Shown here: positions 1,307-19,912 of the stretch, in pieces
Numbering within the stretch: position 1 is the stretch's first letter
Layout of the letters: every line of letters begins with the position of its first letter
Virus record (IMG/VR): IMGVR_UViG_2737471834_000009
Source of the DNA: a virus
Taxonomy: Duplodnaviria > Heunggongvirae > Uroviricota > Caudoviricetes
Length of the DNA stretch: 33,255 nt
Strand: one strand, 5' to 3'
Translations under genes and position numbers: made by a program
Notes under the pieces: generated by a model
Database searches by the model: none
What the model saw: the letters and a program-made list of their open reading frames with translations, nothing else
Told to the model about the DNA's origin: nothing

Positions 1307-3748
1307 TTAAAAATCAACCGGATTCGGGATCAGTTTTTGCCAGATAGCTGAAACGTATTTTGCCTGGTAACGAGCGTCATCAAGTGCATTATGGCGCTCA
1401 CCTTCGAATGGAATAGCCGTTCTGGCATCGAAGTCTATGGCTTTCCCCAGCTCAACGATTGTGCGTACATCGCGATCGTTGTAGTAACGCCACGGGCAGG
1501 GGATCCCCTGCCGTTCGTATGAACGGCGCAAAATCGTGTTGTCGAAGTTGGCTCCATTTCCCCAGACCTGAACAAAAAATTCACCGGAGTTTTCGTCGAT
1601 AAATTCCCGCAATTGTAACAGTGCATCATCTAACGGGATTTCATCGGTCATAATGGCAGATTGCGCTTCGCGTGATTGCTTAAGCCACCATTTAATGGTG
1701 TCCCGATCAATGACTCCGCCAGCAGTTTCCAGATCGATAGTCTTACTAAATTCCGGTCCCATATCTCCGGTTTGCGGATCGAAAAATATTGCACCTATTG
1801 AGATGATCGGGGCATCAGGATTTTTTCCCATGGTTTCAAGGTCGATCATTAGATGGTCACACGTCCTGCTGGTGGATGTGATTTCGTGATGACCGTTCAC
1901 CTTAATTGAGTGATCTGCCGTCTCGCCAGTTTTATTATCGCTGGCGTGATGCTGATTGCCGCCAGGGTTCTCCTTGTGTGGATGTTCAGCGCCTTCCATT
2001 TCCTCCGGATCATTTTCCTGAACTTCAACCTGATTCTCTTCATCGAATGTTTCCTGGTATGTTGCGTCGCCCATCACCGCGCCACAATCAGGGCAGTTGC
2101 CGCCACCGCTCTGACCGCAGGCGGTGCAGACTTTTTCCGGTTCCTGTTGCGCTACTGGTTCGGATTGTTTCGTTTCTGGCTCGTTTTGTAACGCATTTGG
2201 GCTGTTTTGTTCCGCTTTTTGGTCGTTCCGTTCCGATTCATGCTGGTTCTGGTTCACAGAATCGCGAGTCTGGATCCCCTTGACCCATTTCGGATCATTA
2301 GGGTCGCTAATCCCCTCAACAAATTCACCACGCGATACAGCAAGTAACTTATCGGCGTCAGGCTGGCTGATATTGGCTGCCTGCATAATTTTGTTTACTT
2401 CGTCAGCGGTGACTTTTACTTGGTTAGCGGAACTCACCTGCGACTGAGCATCCAGCGACTGCGCGTTCTGGCCATGTTCAGTTGTATCCGGTTCCATTGT
2501 TTCAGTTGTTGCCTGTTCACCTGCCATTGCGTCAGATGGTTGTGGTTTTTCTTCTTCTGTTTCACGCTCAGTAACCACCTCGCGGTTAATTTCTTCCAGG
2601 ATATCTTTTTCCGGCGTATGCCGGGCAGCTGTGAGAGTTTCCTTGCTGGGGTTCTCGTGATCAGTTTCCGTCAAATAGGCGTTGATATACCCCTGAAGGC
2701 GTCCCGGGTAGTGATAAAATTCAGGGTGTGCGCTTCGGATAAGTGCAAAAATAGCGGCGCGGGAATAGTCCAGAATACCCGGGGTTGCACGAAGTGCTGC
2801 GGACCATTCTTTGAACGGACTTTCTTTGTTCAGGACTACTTCTTTTGCGCGACGATAAACGCTGCCCGGAATTTCATAAATATTAAAATCCATCGGAAGT
2901 GTGGCTGCTGCAATCTCCACATCCAGTGTGTCGAGGGTGTGTACTAAATTCGGATTGCGATCGGTTTTGTTCCCACCGCCAGCATTAGCACCGGAAGCCG
3001 TGCGGGTGATGCGTGAAACACGATTTCCTTTCATCCACTCTTTTGTCAGCAGGCCGCGATCGGTGTAGTCAGCGTCCAGGTATGCTTCGAAAAAAGCAGT
3101 CATTAATCCCAGACTGGAATTAACGGGATTAGGGAAAACTTTGTCAGTGTCGCGAACCAGTTTGTGGAGGTCGCGAAGTTCCAGTGGGTCGAGCAGGCTG
3201 GTTTTGTGCGAAATAGCCAGGGCAGTAACTGCCGGTAGCTCTTCAGCCCGAGCGATATGTAATGCCTGAAGTTCATCTCTTGAAACGTGTGTTACTGGTT
3301 TTTCGCTGCCGTGTTGAGCAAGCCAACGGATAGCCACCTCCTGACCGGAAACTGGCAGGAGCATGCTCTCCTCAATCTCCGTCATGTCTTCGCCGTTAAC
3401 ATTGGTATTTTCGGTGCTGGCTGGTTTGTTCTGCACAGAGGGAGATGGCGCGGTGAATACCATTGTGATGCCATCTTCACCGCCTTTTTCATAGCGGTTA
3501 CAGAATTCGGTATCAAACACGCCTTCTGGTGGAAGGTCATTCACAACAGGCAAATGGACGCGAACAGGTTTTTTAAAGTCCTCTTCGTCGTAACCAGCAT
3601 CATCCATTGCGACATTACCGCGGGAAACTGCAACAGATAATTTTTTTGCTGTAGTCCAGTAAAAACCGCCTTTAATACCGAGACGTTTTCTGACTTTGTC
3701 ATTTTTGGCTTCGTAATGGAGTGCAATGTCTTGTTTGTCAGTGCTCAT
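1307..3748 (-). CDS. large exonuclease-like protein with C-terminal DnaQ-like (DEDDh) 3'-5' exonuclease domain
   Basis: C-terminus has motifs DLETMG, WGNGANFD and HNALDDARY typical of DEDD exonucleases; central CxxC...CxxC (CTACGQSGGGNCPDCG); long acidic Q/E-rich linker; RBS GAGG before ATG at 3748. Confidence 0.7.
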   Translation of the reverse strand: MSTDKQDIALHYEAKNDKVRKRLGIKGGFYWTTAKKLSVAVSRGNVAMDDAGYDEEDFKKPVRVHLPVVNDLPPEGVFDTEFCNRYEKGGEDGITMVFTAPSPSVQNKPASTENTNVNGEDMTEIEESMLLPVSGQEVAIRWLAQHGSEKPVTHVSRDELQALHIARAEELPAVTALAISHKTSLLDPLELRDLHKLVRDTDKVFPNPVNSSLGLMTAFFEAYLDADYTDRGLLTKEWMKGNRVSRITRTASGANAGGGNKTDRNPNLVHTLDTLDVEIAAATLPMDFNIYEIPGSVYRRAKEVVLNKESPFKEWSAALRATPGILDYSRAAIFALIRSAHPEFYHYPGRLQGYINAYLTETDHENPSKETLTAARHTPEKDILEEINREVVTERETEEEKPQPSDAMAGEQATTETMEPDTTEHGQNAQSLDAQSQVSSANQVKVTADEVNKIMQAANISQPDADKLLAVSRGEFVEGISDPNDPKWVKGIQTRDSVNQNQHESERNDQKAEQNSPNALQNEPETKQSEPVAQQEPEKVCTACGQSGGGNCPDCGAVMGDATYQETFDEENQVEVQENDPEEMEGAEHPHKENPGGNQHHASDNKTGETADHSIKVNGHHEITSTSRTCDHLMIDLETMGKNPDAPIISIGAIFFDPQTGDMGPEFSKTIDLETAGGVIDRDTIKWWLKQSREAQSAIMTDEIPLDDALLQLREFIDENSGEFFVQVWGNGANFDNTILRRSYERQGIPCPWRYYNDRDVRTIVELGKAIDFDARTAIPFEGERHNALDDARYQAKYVSAIWQKLIPNPVDF

Positions 3749-3877
3749 TGTTTTTAACCTCAACTAAGATTAAAATTCCTCCGGAATGATGAATAAATGT
3801 CCCAGGTTCATCATTCTGGCCTGCACTGAGTGCAGGCCTTTTTACCATTCAGATTTCATCTTTTAGTTCTGTCCCAA

Positions 3878-4123
3878 TCAGTGAGGCCAGATACATGTCT
3901 TTTTTTCTGCAGGCAGATTCTTAATGATATGCACCAGACACATTTTTTTAACACCATCGTTAAGTGTTTTAACATTTCCTGAGAAACCGTAGATATCAAC
4001 CACAGTGAATGGGGTTTCTTTATTTTCTGTCTTAATTACGTAGCCAATACGCTTTTCTTCAAGATTAACCTCGTGAACAATATTATCAGCAGTAACAGTA
4101 GTGACTTCATAACTGGTAATCAT
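3878..4123 (-). CDS. hypothetical small protein, distal gene of the dicB operon
   Basis: 81-aa ORF from internal ATG preceded by AAGGAGA; position downstream of ydfD. Confidence 0.45.
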   Translation of the reverse strand: MITSYEVTTVTADNIVHEVNLEEKRIGYVIKTENKETPFTVVDIYGFSGNVKTLNDGVKKMCLVHIIKNLPAEKKTCIWPH

Positions 4124-4753: not shown

Positions 4754-4811
4754 AAAAAGGGCGGCAGAGCAGTCACGGAGTAAAACTGATACCGCCAAAC
4801 GTCACCAGAAA
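4754..4811 (-). ncRNA. dicF: DicF small RNA (ftsZ-targeting sRNA) with intrinsic terminator
   Basis: Minus-strand sequence TTTCTGGTGACGTTTGGCGGTATCAGTTTTACTCCGTGACTGCTCTGCCGCCC followed by a T-run; GGCGG...CCGCC terminator hairpin; located between ydfC and dicB as in the Qin prophage. Confidence 0.8.
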
Positions 4812-11183: not shown

Positions 11184-11660
11184 ATGCAAGAAATCAAAGA
11201 AAATATCAGGCAACAGCTTTACGGGTTTTATATTGCTTATGATTTGTGGCTGAAGAACGGGGCAAAACCCGGCGGAGTGTTTTCTCAAAATTATGGTTTA
11301 TGCGCCAATCTTTTCGATTATCTCACATTAATTGGTACCCCCTGTGAGGCAGCGCTGGAGCAATTACACGCTGATTTCAGAAGTGCCGGGCTGAATGAGG
11401 CGTTGCCGTTTAACGAGGGTAAAGAGCATTACCATGAAGAAAGAGGGCACAACATGTGCCATATGAATCCGGCACGAGTGGCGTGGGTCAGGGCGCAGAC
11501 AGGGCAGCCAGCGCCGGAAGGACTGGTTAAAGCGGTGCGCTTCTATGAACAGGTTAAGCGTGAAAATCCGCCAGTCGAAACCGGAGCATGGAAAGACGCT
11601 GTTGACTGGGTTCTCGAAGAGGCTTGTCAGGCTGTAAACATTCGCATCAAAGGAGAGTGA
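11184..11660 (+). CDS. hypothetical protein ending IRIKGE
   Basis: 158-aa ORF; the last six codons are encoded by junction element copy 2; SD is separated from the ATG by a GAAA-tetraloop hairpin. Confidence 0.6.
   Translation: MQEIKENIRQQLYGFYIAYDLWLKNGAKPGGVFSQNYGLCANLFDYLTLIGTPCEAALEQLHADFRSAGLNEALPFNEGKEHYHEERGHNMCHMNPARVAWVRAQTGQPAPEGLVKAVRFYEQVKRENPPVETGAWKDAVDWVLEEACQAVNIRIKGE
11639..11657 (+). repeat. junction element copy 2 (CATTCGCATCAAAGGAGAG)
   Basis: Encodes the C-terminal IRIKGE of the upstream gene and the RBS of the downstream gene. Confidence 0.8.
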
Positions 11661-11662
11661 GA

Positions 11663-12154
11663 ATGCAAATTTCACCGGTTACTCTTCGTGTTGCGAAGGC
11701 GTTTATATCCAGACATCACCGACACAATAAACCACCTGTTGGGCATAAATTCAGCATTGGTCTGATAAATGATGCCGGAGAATTGATAGGTGTGGCGACA
11801 GCTGGTCGACCTGTTGCACGACATTTGGACGATGGATTAACGCTTGAAGTAAATCGCACATGTACCACAGGAGAACGCAACGCTAACAGCGCGCTTTATG
11901 GTGCTGTCTGGCGAGCAGCAAAAGCTATGGGTTATCAACGTTGTATTACGTACACCCAGGCAGATGAATCAGGAGCATCTCTTCGCGCAGCTGGTTTTGT
12001 TCGTGTGAAAGAGCTTCCTCCAAGAAAAAGCTGGGCGGAATCAAGCGTCGCCTTGCGGAGTAAACGCGATCCGGTCGGAAACGGTGGTGTTCCTCGTGTG
12101 CTCTGGGAAATCAGGAGAATGAGTACCACTGGCATTCGCATCAAAGGAGAGTGA
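11663..12154 (+). CDS. hypothetical protein ending IRIKGE (possible small alpha/beta enzyme-like fold, unassigned)
   Basis: 163-aa ORF MQISPVTLRVAKAFISRHHRHNKPP...; translationally coupled to both neighbours; terminal codons encoded by junction element copy 3. Confidence 0.6.
   Translation: MQISPVTLRVAKAFISRHHRHNKPPVGHKFSIGLINDAGELIGVATAGRPVARHLDDGLTLEVNRTCTTGERNANSALYGAVWRAAKAMGYQRCITYTQADESGASLRAAGFVRVKELPPRKSWAESSVALRSKRDPVGNGGVPRVLWEIRRMSTTGIRIKGE
12133..12151 (+). repeat. junction element copy 3 (CATTCGCATCAAAGGAGAG)
   Basis: Same 19-mer; followed by TGA then ATATG start of the next gene. Confidence 0.8.
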
Positions 12155-13358: not shown

Positions 13359-13639
13359 GAAGGAAACAAAACAGAAACAACAATTGCCGTTACCTGTTGT
13401 TACCATGGCAAGTAAACGTATCTCAGGCGAGCGCATTGCGCCGTTCTGACGCAGATAAATTAGCCTGGATAGAAGGTGCTGGCAATAAAAAATAGCGTTT
13501 TCTTATCGGTGTCGGTAAGATTGCTGCGGGTGCTTGAGGCTGTCTGCCTCAGGCATGCCACTGTAAGGCAGACAGAGAAAAGCCCCAGTTAACATTATGC
13601 GTCCGGCAAGACGCTTAACATTAATCTGAGGCTCAATCT

Positions 13640-13852
13640 ATGAACGGCAAATCTAGGTTAGCCTCTTACGCGCCGAAAGGCAAGGAGAAGCAGGCTATGA
13701 AGCAGCAAAAGGCGATGTTAGTCGCCCTGATCGTCATCTGTATTACCGTCATTGTGACGGCACTGGTAACGAGGAAAGACCTCTGCGAGGTACGAATCCG
13801 AACCGGCCAGACGGAGGTCACTGTCTTCACAGCTTACGAACCTGAGGAGTAA
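13640..13852 (+). CDS. Mok-like reading frame (in-frame N-terminal extension of Hok)
   Basis: 70-aa ORF containing the hok frame, as in chromosomal mok/hok loci. Confidence 0.55.
   Translation: MNGKSRLASYAPKGKEKQAMKQQKAMLVALIVICITVIVTALVTRKDLCEVRIRTGQTEVTVFTAYEPEE
13697..13852 (+). CDS. hok: Hok/Gef family type I toxin
   Basis: 51-aa product MKQQKAMLVALIVICITVIVTALVTRKDLCEVRIRTGQTEVTVFTAYEPEE is near-identical to remembered HokD/RelF; mRNA leader has the tac-like hairpin GCTTGAGGCTGTCTGCCTCAGG. Confidence 0.85.
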   Translation: MKQQKAMLVALIVICITVIVTALVTRKDLCEVRIRTGQTEVTVFTAYEPEE

Positions 13853-13995: not shown

Positions 13996-14388
13996 ATGAA
14001 GAAACTTGTTTTAGTCGCAGGTGTAATGATTGCAACAGTAATGTTGGGAGGGTGTGCAGCAAAGGTCGATCCAGCGTTGAAAGCAGAAGCAATGAAGCCA
14101 CTAACATGTAATGATGAAAAGCAATGTGACTTTTATTGGAAACGAGCGCAATTCTGGTTGGCTAATAATTCCTCATGGAAAATTCAAACGGCGACAGACA
14201 CGCTAATTTCCACTTATAATCCCTCTCCAAATAGTCCATTCCTCGCTTATCAAGTGAGTAAAATGCCAAATGAAGATGGATCCTCAAGAATTTTCATCAA
14301 GCCTTTTTGCGATAATATGTTTGGCTGTCAACCAAACCCCTATCAGGCAGTTGTTTCCTTTAAAAACTTCGTTAAAACAGGGCAGTAG
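13996..14388 (+). CDS. putative lipoprotein (moron)
   Basis: Signal peptide with lipobox MLGGC, four further cysteines; followed by an intrinsic terminator. Confidence 0.7.
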   Translation: MKKLVLVAGVMIATVMLGGCAAKVDPALKAEAMKPLTCNDEKQCDFYWKRAQFWLANNSSWKIQTATDTLISTYNPSPNSPFLAYQVSKMPNEDGSSRIFIKPFCDNMFGCQPNPYQAVVSFKNFVKTGQ

Positions 14389-14586: not shown

Positions 14587-14612
14587 ACCCGCTTCGGCGG
14601 GTTTTGTTTTTT
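14587..14612 (+). terminator. intrinsic terminator (ACCCGC-TTCG-GCGGGT plus T-run)
   Basis: Perfect 6-bp stem, TTCG loop, TTTTGTTTTTT. Confidence 0.7.
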
Positions 14613-14684: not shown

Positions 14685-14963
14685 ATGGCGCACGATACCA
14701 AATTACACAATTCTGATGATTCTGCCGTCTTTGCCAGCAGGTGCGGACGGCGTTTTCATGCATTCAAATCGGACTGGTTCCAGCATCCACCATGCACTGA
14801 AGAGCAGGCTGAATGGATAATTCAGTGTTACCGCAGGCGCGGATACGAGGTTAAAAAAGCCCTTAGCCTCGACTACCGTCACTGGATAATCTCAGTCAGA
14901 TTGCCTTACTCCGAACGCCCACCGCGTCCGTCCCGCACATTCCAGCAACGCATCTGGAGGTAA
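14685..14963 (+). CDS. hypothetical protein
   Basis: 92-aa ORF from the first ATG downstream of the terminator; stop is 1 nt before the next gene. Confidence 0.45.
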   Translation: MAHDTKLHNSDDSAVFASRCGRRFHAFKSDWFQHPPCTEEQAEWIIQCYRRRGYEVKKALSLDYRHWIISVRLPYSERPPRPSRTFQQRIWR

Positions 14964-14964
14964 C

Positions 14965-16023
14965 GTGCGGGTATTACTTCGACCTGTTCTGGTACCGGAA
15001 CTCGGGCTGGTGATCGTTAAGCCGGGCCGTGAATCCATGCCGGTATTCCACAATACCCGGTTACTGGTGGAGCCGGAACCGAAAAGCATGCGTAATCTGC
15101 CGTCCGGGGTCGTTCCTGCCGCTCGCCAGCCGCTGGTGGAAGACAAAACATTGCTGCCGTTTTTCAGTAACGCACGGGTGATTCGTGCTGCTGGTGGTGC
15201 TGGTGCATTGTCTGACTGGCTGTTGCGCCATATTAAATCCTGCCAGTGGCCACACGGCGATTATCATCACAGCGAAACCGTCATTCACCGTTATGGTACC
15301 GGCGCAATGGTGTTGTGCTGGCACTGCGACAACCAGCTGCGTGACCAGACATCAGAATCACTCGAGCAACTTGCTCATCAAAACTTGTCAGCATGGATGA
15401 TTGACGTCATCCGTCACGCAATCAGCGGTACGCAGGAGAGGGAGTTATCGCTGGCTGAATTATCCTGGTGGGCGGTCTGCAATCAGGTGGCTGATGCGCT
15501 TCCGGAGTCTGTATTGTGTCGTTCACTGGGATTACCGGTGGAAAAAATCCGCTCCGTATACCGTGAGAGTGACATCGTACCGGGAGAACAGACTGCCACC
15601 AGCATACTGAAGCAGCGCACAAAAAATATTGCGCTGCCACTTCACGTCCACCAGCAACAGCCCCCACTCCAGGAAAAGACGTTAGTAAGCATCGCCGTTG
15701 ATCCGGAGTCTCCGGCTCAGTATCTCCAGCGCCAGAAACCACAACGGGAAGAGATGCCTGTATACACGCGCTGGGTAAAAACGCAGAAATGCATGACGTG
15801 CGGTAATCAGGCAGATGATCCGCATCACATCATTGGTCATGGACTGGGAGGGATGGGAACAAAGGCTGATGATTTGTTTGTTATTCCGCTGTGCCGTAAA
15901 TGTCATAACGAACTGCACGCCGGGGTAAAAGATTTTGAAGAAAAACACGGCAGCCAGCTGTTGTTGCTGATTCGTTTTTTAATGCACGCGAGAAATTCGG
16001 GTGTCCTGAAGTGGAAAGCATGA
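14965..16023 (+). CDS. DUF968/YdfU-like protein with C-terminal HNH-like zinc-finger motif
   Basis: 352-aa ORF, GTG start with RBS GGAGG; C-terminus CMTCGNQADDPHHIIGHG...CRKCHNELH; same size and position as Qin prophage ydfU next to Q. Confidence 0.7.
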   Translation: MRVLLRPVLVPELGLVIVKPGRESMPVFHNTRLLVEPEPKSMRNLPSGVVPAARQPLVEDKTLLPFFSNARVIRAAGGAGALSDWLLRHIKSCQWPHGDYHHSETVIHRYGTGAMVLCWHCDNQLRDQTSESLEQLAHQNLSAWMIDVIRHAISGTQERELSLAELSWWAVCNQVADALPESVLCRSLGLPVEKIRSVYRESDIVPGEQTATSILKQRTKNIALPLHVHQQQPPLQEKTLVSIAVDPESPAQYLQRQKPQREEMPVYTRWVKTQKCMTCGNQADDPHHIIGHGLGGMGTKADDLFVIPLCRKCHNELHAGVKDFEEKHGSQLLLLIRFLMHARNSGVLKWKA

Positions 16024-16389
16024 ATGACTGAACGCATAGAATTTGTTTTGCCTTACCCGCCGACGGTGAATACCTACTGGCGACGTCATGGCAATACGTA
16101 TTTCATCTCGGAGGCCGGAAAGCGTTATCGCCGTGATGTGGCGCTAATTGTTCGCCAGCAGCGGCTGAAATTAAACCTGTCCGGAAGGCTGGCGATAAAG
16201 ATTATTGCAGAGCCACCGGATAAGCGCCGTCGTGACCTGGACAATATCCTGAAAGCACCACTGGATGCGCTGACGCATGCCGGACTTATCATAGACGACG
16301 AGCAGTTTGATGAAATCAATATTGTGCGCGGTCAGCTCGTTCCTGGTGGGCGGCTGGGGATAAAAATCACAGAACTGGAGTGCGCATGA
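16024..16389 (+). CDS. rusA: Holliday junction resolvase RusA
   Basis: 121-aa product with RusA hallmarks (LPYPPTVNTYWRRHG...DKRRRDLDNILKAPLDALTHAGLIIDDEQ); ATGA overlap with upstream stop. Confidence 0.9.
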   Translation: MTERIEFVLPYPPTVNTYWRRHGNTYFISEAGKRYRRDVALIVRQQRLKLNLSGRLAIKIIAEPPDKRRRDLDNILKAPLDALTHAGLIIDDEQFDEINIVRGQLVPGGRLGIKITELECA

Positions 16390-17075
16390 ATAACCAGTAT
16401 TTACAGTTTGTGCGTGAGCAGCTCATTATCGCCACCGCTGATTTGAGTGGGGCAACAAAAGGTCAGCTTGAAGCCTGGCAGGAGAATGCCATGTTCGATA
16501 CAGGGCGTTACAGGCGTAAAAAAATCCGGTACCGAGATGAAGTGACCGGAAAAATGATTACGCGGGATAATCCACCAATCCCGGGAAAACAATCACTGGT
16601 GAAAGGCTCATCAATTGCCCTGGTCAGCCCGGTTGAGTTTTCGACATCATCGTGGCGGCGGGCTGTTTTGTCTCTTGAAGAACATCATAAAGCCTGGTTG
16701 TTGTGGAGTTACAGCGGGAGTATTTGTTGGGAATATCAGATCGCGATAACACAGTGGGCGTGGAATGAATTTAATACTCAATCAGGTACCAGAAAAATTG
16801 CAGGGAAAACGCAGGAACGCCTGAAAAAATTAATCTGGCTGGCGGCGCAGGCAGTAAAAGCAGAACTTTTTGGTGGGGAAGGTTATGAATACCAGGAGCT
16901 GGCATTACTGGCGGGAGTGACAACTAAAAACTGGTCCAAAACATTTACTCGTCACTGGGTTGCAATGAAACACATTTTTCAACGACTGGATAGTGAGGCT
17001 TTATTGTTTGTAATGAGAACACGTTCAAAACAAAAGGCGGCATTTTCAAAGCAAAGTGTTGCAAAAGTAGATTGA
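16386..17075 (+). CDS. late gene antiterminator Q-like protein
   Basis: About 230 aa, immediately upstream of a promoter and short terminated transcript and then the lysis genes; start overlaps rusA stop. Confidence 0.7.
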   Translation: MNNQYLQFVREQLIIATADLSGATKGQLEAWQENAMFDTGRYRRKKIRYRDEVTGKMITRDNPPIPGKQSLVKGSSIALVSPVEFSTSSWRRAVLSLEEHHKAWLLWSYSGSICWEYQIAITQWAWNEFNTQSGTRKIAGKTQERLKKLIWLAAQAVKAELFGGEGYEYQELALLAGVTTKNWSKTFTRHWVAMKHIFQRLDSEALLFVMRTRSKQKAAFSKQSVAKVD

Positions 17076-17285: not shown

Positions 17286-17361
17286 GGCCCTTTAGCTCAG
17301 TGGTGAGAGCGAGCGACTCATAATCGCCAGGTCGCTGGTTCAAATCCAGCAAGGGCCACCA
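17286..17361 (+). tRNA. tRNA, anticodon CAU (ileX/ileZ-like tRNA-Ile2; tRNA-Met not excluded)
   Basis: Manual cloverleaf: acceptor GGCCCTT/AAGGGCC, anticodon loop CTCATAA, T-loop TTCAAAT, CCA encoded; close to remembered ileX. Confidence 0.8.
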
Positions 17362-17362
17362 A

Positions 17363-17439
17363 CCGCCACTAGCTCATCAGGAAAGAGCGTCAACCCTTTA
17401 AGTTGAGTGTGCGAGGTTCGAGTCCCCGGTGGCGGTCCA
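17363..17439 (+). tRNA. atypical tRNA, anticodon loop CCTTTAA (anticodon UUU, Lys-like, with C at position 33)
   Basis: Manual cloverleaf: acceptor CCGCCAC/GTGGCGG (C1-G72), D-loop with GG, T-loop TTCGAGT, CCA encoded; isotype uncertain. Confidence 0.55.
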
Positions 17440-17441
17440 GT

Positions 17442-17517
<76 letters not shown>

Positions 17518-17520
17518 TAT

Positions 17521-17595
<75 letters not shown>

Positions 17596-19561: not shown

Positions 19562-19912
19562 ATGCCATCACGAATCCCACGCGCCTGCCGTAAGCGTGGA
19601 TGTGCAGGTACAACCACAGACAGTTCTGGTTACTGCGATAAACATCGTGGCGAAGGATGGGTACAGCATCAACGCGGACTGAGCCGCCACCAGCGTGGCT
19701 ATGGCTCGAAATGGGATGCCATACGTGCGCGCATACTGAAGCGTGATAATCATCTGTGTCAGAACTGCCTGCGCAATGGGAGAGCCGTTGAAGCCAGAAC
19801 TGTGGACCACATCATTCCGAAAGCTCATGGTGGCACGGATGCAGACAGTAACCTGCAGAGTCTGTGCTGGCCCTGTCATAAAGCAAAAACAGCGCGCGAA
19901 CGCATCAATTGA
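19562..19912 (+). CDS. HNH endonuclease (terminase-associated)
   Basis: CxxC...H-N-H...CxxCH motifs (CQNCLRNG...DHIIPKAHGGTDADSNLQSLCWPCHKAK); directly upstream of the terminase genes. Confidence 0.85.
   Translation: MPSRIPRACRKRGCAGTTTDSSGYCDKHRGEGWVQHQRGLSRHQRGYGSKWDAIRARILKRDNHLCQNCLRNGRAVEARTVDHIIPKAHGGTDADSNLQSLCWPCHKAKTARERIN

Follow-up and report, generated by a model that had tools for sequence, protein, structure and literature searches.

The locus

The DNA analysed here is a single stretch of 33,255 nucleotides (the window), which as a whole is a lambdoid prophage with replication genes and HK97-type packaging genes. The gene under study lies in a compact group, all on one strand, made up of the following features.

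14587..14612, + strand: intrinsic-terminator-like hairpin and T-run (ACCCGCTTCGGCGGGT then TTTGTTTTTT), 5' of the small ORF, ydfU, rusA and Q
14685..14963, + strand: small ORF 5' of ydfU and coupled to it; its start is uncertain and the frame is open from 14604
14965..16023, + strand: ydfU-type gene of the DUF968 family (ORF, Pfam DUF968, phrog_96, RefSeq identity)
16024..16389, + strand: rusA, Holliday-junction resolvase (Pfam RusA PF05866, E=4.3e-16; phrog_34, E=3e-57)
16380..17075, + strand: late-gene antiterminator Q (Pfam Phage_antiter_Q PF06323, E=9.2e-90; phrog_304, E=3e-106)

The ydfU-type ORF starts with GTG, ends with TGA and encodes 352 amino acids, according to both the ORF list and the raw sequence. 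An initial annotation of this DNA had described a 352-aa product with an HNH-like C-terminal motif; frame and motif are both present, the latter (KCMTCGNQADDPHHIIGHGLGGMGTKADDLFVIPLCRKCHNELHAG) spanning residues 275-320. A GGAGG Shine-Dalgarno sequence lies 5' of the GTG (14956-14960), and a single base separates that GTG from the stop codon of the small upstream ORF (14961-14963). At the other end, the ydfU TGA (16021-16023) directly abuts the rusA ATG at 16024, and the rusA stop (16387-16389) overlaps the start of Q (ATGA at 16386). Given these start and stop contacts, ydfU, rusA and Q are packed without intergenic space. RusA and Q, which the initial annotation had named as neighbours, are indeed the next two genes; RusA also matches NCBIfam NF007305 (E=6.8e-25, 87.9 bits), below the curated cut-off of 200 for that model. 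The window ORF is an intact ydfU-type (DUF968) gene in a lambdoid E. coli prophage of the Qin/PPompW kind.

The small upstream ORF matches phrog_1212 (E=6e-36) over residues 54-119 of its 119-aa frame. Its homologue in the closest annotated relative is a 'hypothetical protein' directly 5' of the DUF968 gene, and a similar small ORF stands upstream of ydfU in 25 of 80 related loci. The hairpin at 14587-14612 is the only nearby terminator-like site with a good T-run. We found no promoter-like site between it and ydfU. Between ydfU, rusA and Q, the search for promoter- or terminator-like sites gave a single weak match, which lies within a gene. With no promoter between terminator and ydfU, expression presumably needs read-through or antitermination. 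From the packing, co-transcription of the small ORF, ydfU, rusA and Q by read-through seems a reasonable reading.

A widespread prophage gene of the DUF968 family

The protein matches Pfam DUF968 (PF06147) over residues 160-344 with E=2.8e-63 (213.4 bits, cut-off 27.8), covering positions 1-169 of the 171 in the profile, and PHROG 96 (phrog_96, 'HNH endonuclease') over residues 1-349 with E=1.3e-164. By these scores the family match is far beyond chance, and the DUF968/YdfU-like call of the initial annotation stands. A second Pfam model, HNHc_6 (PF16784), is reached at residues 267-328 (E=1.4e-7, 31.8 bits, cut-off 26.6). This match is limited to profile positions 119-184 of 204, the HNH core only. 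The profile search for DUF968 and HNH that had been proposed earlier as a check therefore returns both. NCBIfam has no model for the protein. Collinearity with YdfU-type proteins holds over the full length, including the N-terminal 160 residues that lie outside Pfam DUF968, and full-length relatives align end to end, with the same three-part architecture, down to about 27% identity.

At the DNA level the gene is 98.9% identical to RefSeq 'DUF968 domain-containing protein' genes of E. coli chromosomes. A ydfU match occurs in 4538 of 5426 complete E. coli genomes (84%), with up to nine copies per genome. Sequenced phages carry the gene too, labelled 'putative YdfU family protein' or 'ydfU' (e.g. 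vB_EcoS-640R1), and the closest annotated relative of the window, a prophage at the ompW locus, has an identical gene order. Taken by itself, the presence of ydfU here is routine annotation of a ubiquitous prophage gene. Yet YdfU is among the most widespread uncharacterised E. coli prophage genes, present in most complete genomes and often in several copies, and we found no experimental work in the literature on YdfU itself or on any close relative.

The C-terminal nuclease domain

The part of the protein for which a function can be argued most directly is its C-terminus, where two features are nested.

15742..15999, + strand: C-terminal HNH (His-Me finger) nuclease domain, residues ~260-345
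15790..15918, + strand: HNH core motif, residues 276-318 (direct sequence reading, conservation in 78 relatives, map to Gp16)

The core holds a Cys4 zinc site (C276, C279, C310 and C313, all four present in the window protein) and a catalytic set of H287, H288, D303, H314 and H318. H287 and H288 lie on strand 1, D303 takes the Asn position, and H314 and H318 sit on the helix. The domain has the beta-beta-alpha-metal fold of the His-Me finger/HNH superfamily, and 69-76 of 78 relatives retain the residues that define the superfamily (strand-1 His, Asn equivalent, metal-ligand His on the helix). No catalytic residue is missing from residues ~260-345, which form a zinc-finger HNH (His-Me finger) domain of the canonical type. 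The earlier reading of this region as an HNH-type nuclease or zinc-finger motif is supported by the HNHc_6 match and by the zinc and catalytic residues. The outcome named at the time as speaking against it, a C-terminus with no metal-binding fold, was looked for, and a fold with all four cysteines was found instead.

Conservation was counted across a set of 78 full-length relatives with an identity ceiling of 70%. The catalytic set is close to invariant in them: H287 is kept in 71, H288 in 71, D303 in 76, H314 in 71 and H318 in 69. The zinc ligands are more variable: C276 is kept in 75, C279 in 48 and C310 in 51 of the 78; at position 313, 24 relatives have H, 21 have C and 21 have E. Roughly a third of the relatives are without at least one of the Cys ligands at 279, 310 and 313, so the zinc finger of this domain is not essential across the family. 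Because the catalytic set is kept better than these three ligands, we argue that selection has probably acted on catalysis, that is, on an active enzyme, and on this ground we infer nuclease activity.

Among biochemically studied proteins, the relative closest to YdfU by sequence is Gp16 of S. aureus phage phiNM1, an HNH nickase expressed early that binds RecA and whose cleavage RecA enhances (PMC12817073, NAR 2026). Its published zinc ligands are C148, C181 and H184, and its nuclease centre is formed by H157, H185 and H189 (PMC12817073). We take phiNM1 CDS ABF73046.1 to be Gp16, an identification made in this analysis, because C148, H157, C181, H184, H185 and H189 all sit at the published positions. 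The CDS encodes 223 aa and matches HNHc_6 over its full length (E=4.9e-117); it reaches DUF968 as well (E=1.2e-6). BLASTP aligns YdfU 273-328 with Gp16 142-200 at 39% identity over 59 aa (E=1e-8). In this alignment C276/C279 correspond to C145/C148, H288 to H157, C310 to C181, C313 to H184, H314 to H185 and H318 to H189.

Among solved structures, P1 Ref (PDB 3PLW) has the highest structural and profile similarity to YdfU (hhalign probability 77.6%, E=1.9e-5). The window C-domain has no match to the Pfam model built on Ref, RecA_dep_nuc (PF16786), at E<=1; nine of 21 YdfU relatives match it weakly, the best at E=0.0036. A full-length YdfU profile gave no match at all against PDB sequences, and only a profile of the isolated C-domain reached YbcO, weakly.

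The DUF968 HNH module is a portable nuclease cassette, found also behind different N-terminal partners (LexA-type and HTH domains, among others). Other joined forms were set aside as uninformative about architecture, namely the N-part of YdfU joined to tail-tip, tail-fibre, J or portal pieces, and Dam or MT-A70 fragments joined to the DUF968 C-part. The chimeras P0147, P0175, P0179, P0128, P0190 and P0200 are probably deletion or mosaic junctions of decaying prophages.

The N-terminal domain and the linker

N-terminal to the nuclease domain lie a second folded region and a linker.

15127..15549, + strand: N-terminal/middle folded domain, residues 55-195 (helices, beta-hairpin, helix, long helix at 131-154)
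15241..15342, + strand: conserved zinc-type site, residues 93-126 (conservation in 78 relatives)
15550..15741, + strand: low-confidence linker, residues 196-259 (pLDDT 37-59)

Pfam makes no assignment for residues 1-159, and PHROG 11007, itself of unknown function, covers residues 2-135. The region nevertheless carries a pattern, C93-x7-[C/H]101-x16-C118-W119-H120-[H/C]121-D122-N123, that is almost invariant in diverse relatives. Among the 78, C93 is kept in 76, C118 in 77, W119 in 75, D122 in 71 and N123 in 58. Position 101 is C in 47 and H in 28 (one or the other in 75), and position 121 is H in 58 and C in 19 (either in 77). As the interchange of C and H is a signature of metal ligands, we read positions 101 and 121 as such.

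A further AF2 model, restricted to residues 55-195 and built from 60 sequences, is of very high confidence (pLDDT 92.9, pTM 0.85). The prediction places C118 where a beta-hairpin (105-110, 113-118) meets a helix (119-125), a beta-beta-alpha arrangement. Position 102, in the register of a catalytic His, is not conserved (H in 27, D in 26 and S in 11 of the 78). A second BLASTP segment pairs YdfU 93-118 with Gp16 148-181 in a like register, weakly (E=0.092). Foldseek searches with the N-domain gave nothing significant (best E=2.6). Internal duplication was considered and set aside as evidence: hhalign of the N-domain against the C-domain gives E=0.046 but a probability of 1.15%, a weak match that is suggestive in its like register only. 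The N-domain is well folded, and the hairpin-helix core bears a zinc-type site of four strictly conserved putative ligands. It probably binds zinc and looks like a catalytically degenerate HNH from which the conserved catalytic His has been lost; it would serve as a DNA- or partner-binding or pseudo-dimer module. We did not see an N-terminal HNH-like zinc domain described in Jablonska et al. 2017 (PMC5714182) or Curtis et al. 2014 (PMC4118853), and a possible second, degenerate one is a concrete structural hypothesis.

The linker carries the short motifs RESD (~200-203), VDPE-P (~245-250) and P-K (257-258), with E201 kept in 52, D203 in 58, D246 in 73, P250 in 66 and K258 in 75 of the 78 relatives. 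Residues ~196-259 are predicted to be a flexible linker in which short motifs are conserved.

Gene neighbourhood and what it says about function

To place the window in context we used 80 loci from distinct species, mostly Enterobacterales, found with a 17-sequence alignment. Counts of RusA, Q and NinG come from BLASTP with single reference proteins and are lower bounds. A RusA-like ORF lies within 4 kb of ydfU in at least 46 of the 80 loci, and in 34 no RusA was detected. Of these 46, RusA is upstream of ydfU in 43 (adjacent in 14, with one gene between in 29) and downstream in three, so the YdfU-RusA-Q order of the window is a minority arrangement among species-representative loci with RusA. 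Since the position of RusA varies and none was detected in 34 loci, the two form a neighbourhood rather than a fixed pair; the link between YdfU and RusA recurs without being obligatory. A Q-like ORF lies 3' of ydfU in at least 27 of the 80 loci and directly so in 24, and YdfU typically fills the final position ahead of Q, the one held by NinG/Rap in lambda. BLASTP with the single lambda reference found no NinG-like ORF in the 80 loci, which suggests that NinG and YdfU are alternatives. They do not appear to be relatives: the window protein has no Pfam match to NinG/Rap (PF05766), and its best BLASTP match to lambda NinG has E=1.5.

In loci L028, L037 and L080 (~3270-4004), where the order is RusA-x-YdfU, x is a protein of ~230-245 aa that resembles, by eye, Rha/antirepressor-type regulators (MSSR-IA-LV-S-H-DV-R-IERL...).

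In 24 of 80 loci ydfU directly precedes Q, which invites another reading, that YdfU is a non-catalytic zinc-finger protein with a DNA-binding or regulatory role, for example in modulating late transcription together with Q, its HNH scaffold serving only to bind nucleic acid. Several observations fit such a role. Fusions of YdfU to a Q-type antiterminator (PF03589) occur in P0348, P0349 and P0361 (607 aa), although frameshifts or annotation errors may have produced these; in P0205 and P0268 a LexA-type or HTH_36/Phg_2220_C DNA-binding domain is joined to the DUF968 HNH module; one family member is labelled 'phage transcriptional regulator' in the literature; and the N-terminal domain resembles an inactivated HNH. 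However, the five catalytic positions are kept better than the zinc ligands, the opposite of what is expected for a pure scaffold, and the homologous module of Gp16 cuts DNA. We regard a purely regulatory YdfU as distinctly unlikely.

The rest of the window holds several further elements. Four tandem tRNAs lie directly 3' of Q at 17286-17595 (+), namely CAT, Lys-TTT, Thr-TGT and Gly-TCC. The CAT tRNA was called Met and could be of the Ile2/lysidine type. The closest E. coli relative has Ile and Arg tRNAs there, and tRNA cargo therefore differs between near-identical prophages. A 176-aa ORF at 11624-12154 (+) matches the NCBIfam XF1762 family (E=8e-61) and, below threshold, Pfam Mom (E=4e-5); this nin-region gene may encode a DNA-modification enzyme of the Mom-like kind. 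About 1.1 kb 5' of ydfU, at 13528-13852 (+), is a hok/sok type I toxin-antitoxin module (Rfam sok, 111.7 bits), whose Hok-like ORF spans 13640-13852. A 130-aa ORF (13996-14388, +), lying after hok and before the terminator at 14587, has a lipoprotein-type signal (MKKLVLVAGVMIATVMLGGC) and no Pfam or NCBIfam match, and is a possible moron. The DicF small RNA is found at 4759-4810 (-) with 76.7 bits (Rfam), which fits a Qin/PPompW-type prophage with a dicB region. The presence of lysis genes is read from where ORFs lie and from the annotated relative. Another HNH gene, unrelated to ydfU (19562-19912, +, 116 aa, PF01844, E=1.9e-16) lies 5' of a P27-type small terminase and TerL, and is presumably the packaging HNH.

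This last gene bears on the idea that YdfU itself is a terminase-associated HNH for cos or pac cleavage, like HK97 gp74. Many HK97-like and P27-like modules need an HNH protein, and the small terminase here is of the P27 family. But the dedicated HNH gene stands directly 5' of that small terminase, so the packaging role is already filled, and ydfU is 3.5 kb away in the early region, across Q, the tRNAs and the lysis genes. A packaging function for YdfU is very improbable. Much the same can be said of a free-standing homing endonuclease, a selfish mobile gene. HNH domains are common in such enzymes and the nin region is mosaic, yet the position of ydfU between the replication/nin genes and Q is conserved across many genera, the three-part architecture persists at the lowest identities aligned, there is no intron or intein context, and Pfam detects no NUMOD or AP2-type modules. 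That ydfU is a homing gene can hardly be maintained.

A candidate nuclease for recombination or replication intermediates

The reading that we favour, and hold to be probably correct, is that YdfU is a nickase or branch-selective endonuclease of the phage early (nin) region that would act on recombination or replication intermediates. The gene sits in the delayed-early, presumably antitermination-dependent 'nin' region, head-to-tail with rusA and Q, and read-through of the upstream terminator would yield YdfU together with both. The protein would then nick, or cleave in a branch-selective manner, D-loops, forks or junctions in a divalent-metal-dependent reaction, filling the genomic slot held in lambda by NinG/Rap.

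RecA may stimulate this activity, by analogy with phiNM1 Gp16 and P1 Ref, the latter of which cuts DNA solely inside RecA filaments or D-loops (PMC3973344). The resemblance of YdfU to the CHARACTERISED enzymes (Gp16 and Ref) is confined to the nuclease core. We treat RecA dependence as a lead and not a finding, and rate stimulation by RecA as possible, if on the doubtful side. If YdfU does use RecA as Ref and Gp16 do, most E. coli strains, including those bearing Stx phages, would carry a RecA-linked nuclease, and possible effects would extend to prophage induction, recombination between resident prophages and the response to DNA-damaging antibiotics.

A more speculative form of the same idea, which we put forward tentatively and with well under even confidence, builds on the N-terminal domain. 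YdfU might be a covalent pseudo-dimer of two HNH-type domains, the N-copy dead with its zinc site kept and the C-copy active. The dead copy would position the enzyme on branched or RecA-bound DNA, of which just a single strand would be cut. Such a RecA- or structure-guided nickase would replace Rap (NinG) in many RusA-bearing lambdoid prophages.

The studies of Gp16 and Ref also raise a different target. YdfU could be a host-directed or exclusion nuclease that nicks or condenses the host chromosome or attacks the DNA of competing phages. Gp16 suppresses host replication, and its overexpression inhibits S. aureus growth and condenses the nucleoid (PMC12817073); P1 Ref raises the ciprofloxacin sensitivity of lysogens (PMC4713147); and ydfU is kept, often in several copies, in the large majority of complete E. 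coli genomes. Against this, YdfU matches none of the PADLOC models of defence systems, its gene sits in an antitermination-dependent early operon behind a terminator and not in the position of a lysogen-expressed moron, and the recurrent linkage to RusA points to the processing of DNA intermediates. A host-directed role is unlikely, though less so than a regulatory one. It overlaps mechanistically with the favoured role in recombination or replication, being the same enzyme with a different target.

Comparison with known systems

Several known nucleases share part of what is described here. YdfU and Gp16 have homologous HNH cores with zinc-ligand and nuclease-centre residues in one-to-one correspondence, each comes from the early region of its phage, and each phage encodes RusA as well. 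They differ in their N-terminal parts. That of Gp16 is NinB/Orf-like, in keeping with the phiNM1 Gp16/Listeria Orf-HNH type of HNHc_6 protein, whereas YdfU shows no similarity to Orf and has instead a ~190-residue domain with its own zinc-type site. Ref is a protein of 186 aa whose N-terminus, basic and disordered, was investigated for its part in Ref function (PMC4330346); this extension is absent from YdfU. YbcO (DUF1364/PF07102, PDB 3G27; prophage DLP12/phage 82) is a single-domain protein of 96 aa that lacks the N-terminal domain and linker of YdfU and resembles it only marginally in sequence. Lambda NinG/Rap, a branch-specific HNH-type endonuclease, is a positional analogue, an HNH-superfamily gene just 5' of Q, with a similar proposed role in processing recombination intermediates.

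The HNH class of YdfU and its RusA/Q neighbourhood are already published. Curtis et al. 2014 noted the zinc-finger HNH motif in DUF968 (PMC4118853). Jablonska et al. 2017 placed DUF968 with DUF1364 in group 7 of the His-Me fingers, named Qin YdfU and YbcO as members, listed RusA, Q and antirepressor genes as neighbours and proposed a role in recombination or repair (PMC5714182). Compared with YdfU of the E. coli K-12 Qin prophage, the window protein belongs to the same family (PF06147), is encoded by a near-identical gene and has the same RusA and Q neighbours. There is no substantive difference from known YdfU, and the window gene is another allele. To this picture our analysis adds the structural ranking in which Ref is closest, the residue map to Gp16 and, provisionally, a second HNH-like zinc domain.
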